A stretch of 64,000 nucleotides of DNA from Lichenihabitans sp. (lineage in GTDB: Bacteria > Pseudomonadota > Alphaproteobacteria > Rhizobiales > Beijerinckiaceae). Location of the stretch: the NCBI GenBank assembly GCA_036276175.1, contig DATBEH010000040.1, forward strand, positions 1,935-65,934, in the 5' to 3' direction. A program made the position numbers and the translations under genes. Each line of letters begins with the position of its first letter. The stretch's first letter is position 1. Below the pieces are notes generated by a model. That model was not told the DNA's origin. It made no database searches and was given only the letters and a program-made list of their open reading frames with translations. Positions 52,376 through 59,564 of this stretch are shown one piece after another.

Positions 52376-52479
52376 GGAGGTTTCTGCCTTTGACGTCTCA
52401 AGTCATCGCAGGAACTCGTCCCACTCTTGTGGGATTCGCACGCCAGGACACCCCGCCCGGCGTTTCCGCTTTGACGTCC

Positions 52480-52655
52480 GTGATGGCAGGTCTCCTGGCT
52501 CGCGGGTCGGTGCCCCCTTCGCCTTCCCGGGTCCATGTGGCCCAGTGGCTTCGTGAAAGAAGCTCGTCGCTTACAGTTGCGGGGACAGCCGCGGCGTTGG
52601 ACGTTGCCGCCCGCGCCGCATTCCCTTTTGAGCCCTCGCGGGCACCATCTGCGCT
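52480..52655 (-). ncRNA. Cobalamin (B12) riboswitch
   Basis: Minus strand shows GGTGCC...AAAAGGGAAT.CGG...GCCGCGGCTGTCCCCGCAACTGTAAGCG...GCCACTG...GGGAAGG...GAGCCAGGAGACCTGCC, the conserved B12-box elements. Confidence 0.93.
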
Positions 52656-52699
52656 ACGATAACGGGCTGACATGGCCACGGTCAACGTGGCAAGGTCTG

Positions 52700-57278: not shown

Positions 57279-57536
57279 TCAATGGCCGGCGGATTCGAGC
57301 TTCTTCATCAGTTCCAGGAAGCGGTCCGGTACAGGCTGCCGCGCCACGTCGTCGTAGACCGCACGGAGCTGGCGTCCGATATAGGCCTGGAGATCGCCGC
57401 CCTTGGGCGGGCGCGCCGCTCCCGTCGGCGTTGCGCCGCTCGCGCCTCCTCCATCCTCCGCCGCTTCGCATGTCTCGGCCATGCTGTTGGCCGCGGCGGT
57501 CCGGTTCACCTCGTCATCGCCTGTCAAAATCTCCAC
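57279..57536 (-). CDS. nepR: NepR anti-sigma factor
   Basis: IGRQLRAVYDDVARQPVPDRFLELMKKL is the NepR core; divergent from phyR; start uncertain. Confidence 0.9.
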   Translation of the reverse strand: MEILTGDDEVNRTAAANSMAETCEAAEDGGGASGATPTGAARPPKGGDLQAYIGRQLRAVYDDVARQPVPDRFLELMKKLESAGH

Positions 57537-57648: not shown

Positions 57649-57674
57649 AACGTCTGCAAGGAAAAACTTGTTCC
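57649..57674 (-). promoter_or_regulatory. EcfG (general stress sigma) promoter for nepR
   Basis: Minus strand GGAAC-N17-CGTT. Confidence 0.75.
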
Positions 57675-57754: not shown

Positions 57755-58576
57755 ATGTCGATTTCGCAGGCGATCGCTCCGCATCTCCCTCACCTTCGCC
57801 GCTTTGCCCGGGCCCTGACCGGGACACAGCGCGGCGGCGACGCCTACGTGGTCGAGACGCTCGAAGCGATCGTCGCCGATCCCGCCAACCTCGATGCCGC
57901 AAGCGATCTCCGCTGTTCGCTTTATCGCCTGTTTCTCAATATCTGGACGTCGGTCGCGGTCAACAAAGCCAGCGACGGCGGCGCGAGCCCGACCGACGAG
58001 CCCGGCGCCGCACGCCGCATCGAGGCCATATCGCTGCGCCCGCGCATCGCCCTCCTGCTCACCGCGGTCGAGGGGTTCGACGTCAATGAAGTCTCGCGGA
58101 CGATGGAATGCCCGCCCGACGAGGTCAGAGGCCTGATCGAGGCGGCCAACGTCGAGATCGCCGCGCAGATCTCCACCGACGTGCTGATCATCGAGGACGA
58201 GCCGCTGATCGCGCTCGACCTGCAGAATGTCGTCGAGGACCTGGGTCACCGCGTCGTCGACGTCGCCCGCACGCATCGCGAGGCGCTCAAGGCGGTGCAG
58301 CATCATCAGCCCGGCCTGATCCTGGCCGACATCCAGCTCGCCGACGGCAGCTCCGGTCTCGAGGCCGTCAACGAGATCCTCGGCGCCTTCGAGGTTCCCG
58401 TGATTTTCATCACGGCCTATCCGGAACGTTTCCTCACCGGAGCGCCGCCCGAGCCTGCCTTCCTGATCGCCAAGCCGTTCTCGATCGAGACGCTGCGGGC
58501 CGTGATCAGCCAAGTCCTTTTCTTCGATCGCAAGTCTCACCGCCGATCGACCGAGGCCGTGGCGGCACGCGCCTGA
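57755..58576 (+). CDS. phyR: PhyR anti-anti-sigma response regulator
   Basis: Sigma-like N-terminus HLPHLRRFARALTG.Q..GD.YV; receiver IIEDEPLIA.D, LADIQLADGSSG, FITAYPER, LIAKPF. Confidence 0.96.
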   Translation: MSISQAIAPHLPHLRRFARALTGTQRGGDAYVVETLEAIVADPANLDAASDLRCSLYRLFLNIWTSVAVNKASDGGASPTDEPGAARRIEAISLRPRIALLLTAVEGFDVNEVSRTMECPPDEVRGLIEAANVEIAAQISTDVLIIEDEPLIALDLQNVVEDLGHRVVDVARTHREALKAVQHHQPGLILADIQLADGSSGLEAVNEILGAFEVPVIFITAYPERFLTGAPPEPAFLIAKPFSIETLRAVISQVLFFDRKSHRRSTEAVAARA

Positions 58577-58666
58577 GGCGCCTGCGACGGGCCCCGCTGC
58601 GGTTCCTCCACTTTTGCGTTTTTGCAACACCCGACGACATTCGGATGCGAGCTACCGTGTCCGAAT

Positions 58667-58752
58667 GAAAAACCCGCAACGGCCGGGAGGCCGCTGCGGG
58701 TTTAATGCCGCGCCCGCGAAATGGGAGGGGACAGCATTCCGCGGGCGCGTTT
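58667..58752 (-). ncRNA. Candidate EcfG-dependent sRNA with C-rich loops
   Basis: Exact GGAAC-N16-CGTT upstream, a long stem-loop with loop CUGUCCCCUCC, then a terminator hairpin with CCUCCC at its apex and a U-run; ends approximate. Confidence 0.7.
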
Positions 58753-58758
58753 CGGTGT

Positions 58759-58783
58759 AACGCGCTGTGCCTACGGGTGTTCC
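58759..58783 (-). promoter_or_regulatory. EcfG promoter for the candidate sRNA
   Basis: Minus strand GGAAC-ACCCGTAGGCACAGCG-CGTT (N16). Confidence 0.75.
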
Positions 58784-59063
58784 GAGCTTTGGCCGCTTTC
58801 CGCCATGCCTCGCGGCGGCAGTCGGTCGCACCCTGTGCATTCCACGGGGGAAGTTCGCGCCAGACCGTCGGGCGCCGTTCTATTGGGATGGTCATGGGGC
58901 TATAAAAAAGCCTACGAGGTGATTCGTTCGGCGGCGGAGCGACGCCCGACGATCACGCTCGGTCGCGGGATCGGAGAGACCCGCCAGCTGGCTTGTCGCC
59001 GGAGGTCGACGCGGGGTTCGTCCTGTCCTCATTTGCCCTTCCCCCAAGCCCGGTGAGTACCGA

Positions 59064-59564
59064 ATGTCGCTTATCTCCATCGAACCGGACCGCGCCGAAC
59101 ATCCCGTGGACGTCGTCGAACGGCTGGCGGCGCTGCGCGAATGGTCCTTCGACCGCGAGGACGAGGACGAGATCTCCATTTCGGTCGACGGCGAGGTCGC
59201 CGACTACCATGTCGCCTTCACCTGGCTCTCCGACCTCGAGGCGCTGCATGTCGGCTGCGCCTTCGACCTCAAGGTCCCCGACCGGCGACGAGCCGTGATC
59301 CACTCGCTGGTGGCCCTGATCAACGAGCAGCTGTGGATCGGCCATTTCGACCTGTGGAGCACCGAGAACGTCGTCATGTTCCGGCATTCCCTGCTGATGT
59401 CGGGCGGCGCCGACCCGGACGGCCGGCAATGCGAGGCGATCCTCAAGATGGCGGTCGCCGCCTGCGACCGTTACTACCAGGCCTTCCAGTTCGTGCTCTG
59501 GGCCGGCAAGTCGCCGCGCGAGGCCCTCGACAGCGCCATGTTCGAGACACAGGGCGAAGCGTGA
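59064..59564 (+). CDS. YbjN family protein
   Basis: HPVDVVERLA....WSFDR..EDEI, EALH..CAFD, INEQLWIGHFDLW, YYQAFQFV.WAG. Confidence 0.9.
   Translation: MSLISIEPDRAEHPVDVVERLAALREWSFDREDEDEISISVDGEVADYHVAFTWLSDLEALHVGCAFDLKVPDRRRAVIHSLVALINEQLWIGHFDLWSTENVVMFRHSLLMSGGADPDGRQCEAILKMAVAACDRYYQAFQFVLWAGKSPREALDSAMFETQGEA

Follow-up and report, generated by a model that had tools for sequence, protein, structure and literature searches.

The spacer between phyR and a ybjN-family gene in Lichenihabitans sp. probably carries a gene whose product, about 85 nt long, would be a non-coding RNA that regulates in trans within the alphaproteobacterial general stress response (GSR). Comparison with related genomes points to a real, conserved gene. 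It is predicted to represent a sequence family not described before, of a type of regulator that is already known (GsrN, ReC64), with members in roughly half of the Lichenihabitans species and in no fewer than five other genera of the GTDB family. Everything that can be checked in silico fits, and supports, an EcfG-driven small RNA (sRNA) gene of a general-stress locus; its transcription, EcfG dependence, start site, pairing mechanism and direction of regulation we infer from the nucleotide sequence.

Promoter, hairpins and gene context

The window analyzed here is a single stretch of DNA of 64,000 nt. The predicted sRNA sits in the 487-nt spacer between phyR and the ybjN-family gene, and the features of the locus are as follows.

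58779-58783, minus strand: -35 box GGAAC of the EcfG-type promoter, read directly and exact in homologues
58778-58763, minus strand: 16-nt spacer of the EcfG-type promoter, read directly
58759-58762, minus strand: -10 box CGTT of the EcfG-type promoter, read directly and conserved
58668-58752, minus strand: predicted sRNA transcript of about 85 nt, from promoter geometry and terminator
58709-58749, minus strand: hairpin 1, a perfect 15-bp stem with arms 58749-58735 and 58723-58709
58734-58724, minus strand: 11-nt apical loop of hairpin 1, CUGUCCCCUCC, the proposed seed
58708-58704, minus strand: 5-nt linker GCAUU between the hairpins
58668-58703, minus strand: Rho-independent terminator, a stem of 15 pairs with a U-run
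57755-58576, plus strand: phyR, anti-anti-sigma response regulator (Pfam PhyR_sigma2 1e-23, Response_reg 5.7e-15, PhyR_sigma-like 6.4e-13)
57279-57536, minus strand: nepR, anti-sigma factor, divergent from phyR (Pfam NepR 5.2e-16)
57649-57674, minus strand: second exact EcfG box, GGAAC-N17-CGTT, upstream of nepR and found at the same place in relatives
59064-59564, plus strand: ybjN-family gene on the promoter side of the sRNA, divergent from it (Pfam YbjN 9.8e-30)

The initial annotation had proposed an exact EcfG promoter, a hairpin and a terminator on the minus strand. The promoter was confirmed at 58783-58759, and both structures were recovered in place by direct reading and by minimum free energy folding. 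GGAAC-N16-CGTT corresponds to the sigma-EcfG1 consensus (PMC3892343). Nine nucleotides separate CGTT from hairpin 1, and the transcript is predicted to start 6-9 nt past CGTT and to end in the U-run (UUUUU, 58672-58668, minus strand) of the terminator, whose stem-loop reads AAACCCGCAGCGGCC-UCCC-GGCCGUUGCGGGUUU (58703-58670, minus strand). The minimum free energy structure of a 101-nt stretch consists of exactly these two hairpins (-62.6 kcal/mol; z = -7.7 against dinucleotide shuffles), and none of 200 shuffles folds equally well. A simple terminator scan did not flag the sRNA terminator, in our reading because three of its Us are base-paired to an AAA at the base of the stem. Of the two C-rich loops originally described, that of hairpin 1 holds, the second being merely a tetraloop, UCCC in the window and AGCCCCUG in most relatives.

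Exact GGAAC-N16-CGTT matches number 41 in the 4.78-Mb genome (68% G+C), which is no enrichment, as arbitrary spacer lengths give 11-43 matches; the significance of the promoter therefore rests on its conservation. The chance expectation of such a box within the phyR-ybjN spacer is about 0.004. The absence of an ORF, also claimed at the outset, is upheld: mechanically called ORFs of 48-129 aa overlap the sRNA region, and none is conserved, since homologues differ in length by steps of 1-2 nt (89-97 nt).

The placement of the sRNA in the core GSR locus is correct as regards nepR and phyR, both present, and incorrect as regards ecfG, which lies elsewhere. The box upstream of nepR shows the same type of promoter to be used, by prediction, within the locus. 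The gene after nepR is not ecfG but a convergent gene for an acyltransferase of the HGSNAT type; the best match to an EcfG-like sigma factor is encoded away from the locus, on contig C148 (about 31.9-32.8 kb), beside a putative anti-sigma protein. Hfq is encoded in the genome.

Other motifs were observed on both sides of the sRNA. Between its terminator and the phyR stop codon there are an 8-bp inverted repeat, CATTCGGA-N14-TCCGAATG (58668-58639, minus-strand reading), and a small palindrome, TTGCAAAAACGCAA; repeats such as those of this region (58617-58668) are kept in the two closest relatives only (L009, L010). The region upstream of ybjN (58890-58935, and the same place in L089-L103) carries a genus-conserved motif, GAATCACC, followed after about 12-16 nt by ACTATAG (minus-strand reading). 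This motif contains a GANTC site and persists in species devoid of the sRNA.

Conservation and covariation

Homologues of the sRNA were recovered by BLAST in other Lichenihabitans species, most of them matching in the RNA body only. Both promoter boxes are present in all 13 genus homologues found through the RNA body, at a constant distance from the RNA and with spacers that are unrelated in sequence; the spacer is usually 16 nt long, with 17 nt in a small number of homologues. The -35 box GGAAC is also exact in 11 family-level homologues, again with a variable spacer sequence. Among 15 aligned sequences the loop UCCCCUCCCAU is invariant except for one U-to-C change.

A covariance model (R1) was built from a MAFFT alignment of 15 sequences and calibrated. 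Searched against its own genome, R1 finds the sRNA as a single copy (82.3 bits, E = 4.9e-16); a second match (contig C143, 31 bits) was rejected as a look-alike terminator that has neither promoter nor C-rich loop. A crude scan of the same genome for paralogous hairpins with C-rich loops gave nothing convincing under a filter so strict that it missed the sRNA itself. Exactly one copy (69-101 bits) occurs in 15 of 31 Lichenihabitans species genomes, and beyond Lichenihabitans R1 detects homologues in other genera that belong to its GTDB family. The sRNA is thus missing from about half of the genus and so is dispensable, and the pattern shows gain or loss of the family between close relatives. 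In the Lichenibacterium-type clade of the genus phyR-ybjN synteny is kept, and the spacer is devoid of the promoter, of a C-rich hairpin and of such a terminator.

Covariation in relatives, suggested earlier as a check on the gene, was found in both helices. In the MAFFT alignment of 15 sequences 93.6% of the cells pair, against 86.7 ± 0.9% in shuffles and 37-48% in controls with slid partners, and 11 pairs change on both sides, a count matched by none of 500 shuffles. The stem of hairpin 1 shows double changes in seven of 14 pairs in this genus-level alignment. A model-guided alignment covering 26 sequences from seven genera has them in 13 of 14, and 83% of the cells of this stem pair there against 32-49% with slid partners; covariation counts of the latter kind are biased towards the structure of the model. 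The terminator stem pairs in 100% of cells within the genus, with four pairs changed on both sides, and in 98% across genera in the model-guided alignment. Also, 29 homologues from seven genera, folded independently, share one architecture of two hairpins in which an apical loop presents the C-rich motif, their stem sequences differing widely. Across genera MAFFT misregisters stem 1, and RNAalifold there recovers the terminator alone; for this reason model-guided rows and independent folds were used at that level. Promoter and hairpins, whose lack of conservation had been named beforehand as part of the grounds for abandoning the sRNA, were both found to be conserved across genera.

Linkage to phyR and alternative readings

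The sRNA is convergent with phyR, with 91 nt between its 3' end and the phyR stop codon, and ybjN is syntenic in all genus homologues. Linkage was assessed in 151 genomes of the GTDB family with a pattern consisting of an EcfG box, 15-45 nt and CCCTCCC, which gave 39 matches versus 23 for a reversed control. A PhyR match is found 0.8-2.2 kb away in 16 of these 39 cases, and the excess over the control is also 16. All 16 are located 3' of phyR on the opposite strand, in six genera, bearing out the convergence initially reported for the window. Homologues of the sRNA convergent to phyR occur in five further genera of the same GTDB family. In other Rhizobiales lineages a strict scan of 80 phyR loci yielded nine units of promoter, C-rich hairpin and terminator in eight loci, every one of them convergent with phyR and downstream of it. 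In one genome the sRNA keeps its place beside ybjN, and the only phyR relative detected on that contig is about 130 kb away.

Several further loci were recorded in the course of these searches. One contig of another genus of the family (G190:C11) carries two phyR paralogues about 26 kb apart (386300-387660 and 411970-413500), each with its own convergent EcfG-driven C-rich-loop sRNA (L120, L121, L132, L133). Two genomes of another genus (L126, G127:C9; L127, G077:C13) share, away from phyR, a different conserved unit, in which a C-rich stretch with little structure, ACUUCCAUGCUUAUUCCCUCCCC, sits between an EcfG box and a terminator, with a second EcfG box after the terminator; this unit is a candidate for another stress sRNA. 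A Lichenihabitans-type phyR-ybjN locus (PhyR identity 82%) was found on JBPBQY010000058.1 (L098), labelled 'MAG: Janthinobacterium lividum', which is probably a contig of alphaproteobacterial origin assigned to the wrong bin.

In about half of the sRNA-bearing Lichenihabitans species a second exact EcfG promoter is found right after the sRNA terminator, driving an operon of 1.2-1.5 kb between the sRNA and phyR (seen in L011, L013-L016, L018 and L021; L104:3832-4898, minus strand). Its first gene encodes a DUF883/ElaB-like protein of 123 aa (23 bits, slightly below the Pfam cut-off) and its second product is a holin-X-like membrane protein (PF07332). The operon is absent from the window, and tblastn of its first gene against the whole genome returned no homologue.

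Convergence in 16 of 16 family-level cases and in nine of nine units from other families, together with the short distance to the phyR stop codon, would also suit an RNA that acts in cis, convergent transcription or antisense read-through damping phyR as a negative feedback with no targets in trans. This is unlikely, given that little read-through is expected from a terminator as strong as this one (12 G-C-rich pairs and U5), that the separate EcfG-driven operon intervenes in many species, that in one species the sRNA lies far from phyR, and that the invariant part of the RNA is its apical loop and not the 3' end that faces phyR.

The presence of the DUF883-like and holin-X-like operon downstream on the same strand raises the question of whether the sRNA is a 5' leader or attenuator of a downstream minus-strand gene and not an independent unit. 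Such a role is very improbable: the operon has its own exact EcfG promoter past the sRNA terminator, its first gene has no counterpart in the genome of the window, and neither the window nor its two closest relatives have a gene downstream, where phyR comes next with its 3' end, on the opposite strand.

Hairpin 1 also contains an 11-codon frame (AUG CUG UCC CCU CCC AUU UCG CGG GCG CGG CAU UAA), and action as a protein sponge is known for some sRNAs, so that a tiny peptide, or protein binding in place of base pairing, was considered. The chances of either are slender. The AUG is buried in the stem, lacks a Shine-Dalgarno sequence and is absent from other genera; in relatives the frame has no conserved stop and is broken by length differences of 1-2 nt, and the substitutions follow the pattern of a paired RNA. 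Protein-binding motifs of the GGA type are absent from the sRNA.

Least probable is that the region is only a bidirectional intrinsic terminator for phyR, with the promoter-like string and the upstream hairpin arising by chance: a plus-strand hairpin (58670-58703) does lie 94 nt past the phyR stop and runs into UUUAAU, R1 also matches the reverse strand of sRNA terminators and the genome-wide statistics of exact EcfG boxes are chance-like, yet the comparative data strongly disfavour this reading, since different genera keep both the promoter boxes and hairpin 1, with covariation, sRNA-less relatives with phyR-ybjN synteny have no such hairpin after phyR, the intervening operon separates terminator from phyR in many relatives and in the genome mentioned above the unit stands far from the one phyR relative found on its contig. 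Read on the plus strand, the sRNA terminator could also stop transcription of phyR.

Relation to known RNAs and presumed mode of action

By design and position, the closest precedents of the Lichenihabitans sRNA are ReC64 of Rhizobium etli (Vercruysse et al. 2010; Jans et al. 2013, PMC3892343) and the GsrN-like RNAs. ReC64 is an 88-nt non-coding RNA downstream of phyR-tcrY, with a start site (5' RACE) that fits an EcfG1 box, a Northern signal and an expression that is lost in an ecfG1 mutant (PMC3892343). It resembles the sRNA described here in size (88 versus about 85 nt) and in lying downstream of phyR, and differs in following phyR-tcrY, whereas no kinase gene intervenes in Lichenihabitans; the comparison is one of design and position, between ReC64 and a predicted RNA. 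The idea of a stress sRNA encoded in the core locus, put forward in the initial annotation, is accordingly not new, being already present in the work on ReC64 (PMC3892343) and in PMC5869019.

GsrN-like sRNAs adjoin GSR loci across Alphaproteobacteria, and two of them were predicted purely by position and promoter (Tien et al. 2018, PMC5869019). In Caulobacter crescentus, GsrN (CCNA_R0081) uses its C-tract to pair with G-rich sites in mRNAs, the katG leader among them, and is stabilized by Hfq, its homologues being typically proximal to ecfG, nepR or phyR (PMC5869019). The Lichenihabitans sRNA shares with it a promoter of the sigma-EcfG/SigT type whose boxes are 16 nt apart, a 5' hairpin exposing a C-rich loop and an intrinsic terminator; it has the features that characterize sRNAs linked to GSR loci, namely an EcfG promoter, proximity to a core GSR gene and an exposed 5' C-rich loop. 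In contrast, GsrN is longer (about 100-106 nt), its 5' loop is composite and encloses a nested hairpin, a second long region of it is single-stranded, and cleavage yields a stable 5' isoform, where the Lichenihabitans RNA has a simple apical loop of 11-13 nt and a 5-nt linker. No sequence similarity to C. crescentus gsrN was detected by local alignment (score 11 versus 15.4 ± 2.4 for shuffles), for which the gene block of Tien et al. supplied the gsrN sequence; the GsrN family itself was defined by BLASTn. Judged on these comparisons, the sRNA is GsrN-like by design and not a demonstrable homologue.

At gathering thresholds no Rfam family in the whole window corresponds to the sRNA, the only match above threshold being a cobalamin riboswitch at 52468-52664 (minus strand, 118.6 bits). 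The best match of the sRNA region is ar14 (cuckoo, RF02344), aligned over both hairpins at 29.6 bits against a gathering threshold of 58.8, with an E-value of 0.0012 that applies within a 601-nt search only; searched across the whole genome, ar14 gives no match at E <= 1. Cuckoo RNAs are defined by two to four adjacent hairpins, each with CCUCCUCCC in a loop of 9-27 nt, and their published range does not extend to Beijerinckiaceae or Lichenihabitantaceae (Reinkensmeier and Giegerich 2015, PMC4615179). These stress-induced, Hfq-associated sRNAs (ar14/SmrC14/NfeR1 of Rhizobiaceae, CcsR1-4 of Rhodobacter) share with the Lichenihabitans sRNA adjacent hairpins separated by a short linker and an anti-Shine-Dalgarno-like loop (CCUCCUCCC in cuckoo, UCCCCUCCC here), and the two 15-bp helices and 5-nt linker agree with the cuckoo limits of at least 6 bp and at most 10 nt. 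However, the motif-like UCCCCUCCC occurs in hairpin 1 only, the second loop is a terminator loop of 4-8 nt, the gene is single-copy and not part of a clustered multicopy family, and its promoter is of the EcfG type, not of the RpoHI/HII type of CcsR. Membership in the cuckoo family, a type cited in the initial annotation, was rejected on the score and on the single motif-bearing loop.

Working in the manner of GsrN is, by analogy, the most likely mechanism. Stress would lead to phosphorylation of PhyR, which would capture NepR and free sigma-EcfG; EcfG-RNA polymerase would then initiate at GGAAC-N16-CGTT, a few bases ahead of the long 5' hairpin, and transcription would stop at the intrinsic terminator. 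Hairpin 1 would display its nearly invariant loop, UCCCCUCCC(AU), for pairing with G-rich stretches of mRNAs, either ribosome-binding regions of the GGGAGGGG type or 5' leaders, and this pairing would alter translation or stability of the targets, probably with Hfq.

Target prediction, another of the checks suggested earlier, gave candidates and no statistically supported target. Exact complements of at least 9 nt to the sRNA loop number 209 genome-wide, about ten of them at ribosome-binding sites, including a handful of the GGGAGGGG type; these plain counts are not taken as evidence. A literature search found no transcriptome of Lichenihabitans. The best of several windows in each case gave duplex energies with the sRNA of -13.9 (phyR leader), -23.2 (within nepR) and -24.5 (ahead of the C148 ecfG); against a background with a mean of -15.4 and a 1% tail at -25, none of these pairings with the core genes is significant. 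That the tight linkage to phyR, with its fixed orientation, is itself functional and more than co-inheritance, the RNA feeding back on the partner switch, for instance through translation of an EcfG paralogue, for which this family would be an evident candidate, is doubtful; a weaker variant would make the sRNA a single-module cuckoo offshoot under EcfG control.

Read as an EcfG-driven trans-acting sRNA, the gene leaves the general concept unchanged, EcfG-dependent sRNAs beside phyR having been shown in R. etli in 2013 and generalized in 2018. It contributes a sequence and structure family that falls below every Rfam threshold, described by a calibrated covariance model with about 30 members in seven genera. 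Lichenihabitans, a lichen-associated genus of the Hyphomicrobiales, is one of the bacterial partners most often met in lichens. Its members live there with recurrent desiccation, light and oxidative stress, conditions under which the general stress response should matter. To that response in Lichenihabitans, the predicted sRNA adds a well-supported RNA gene.
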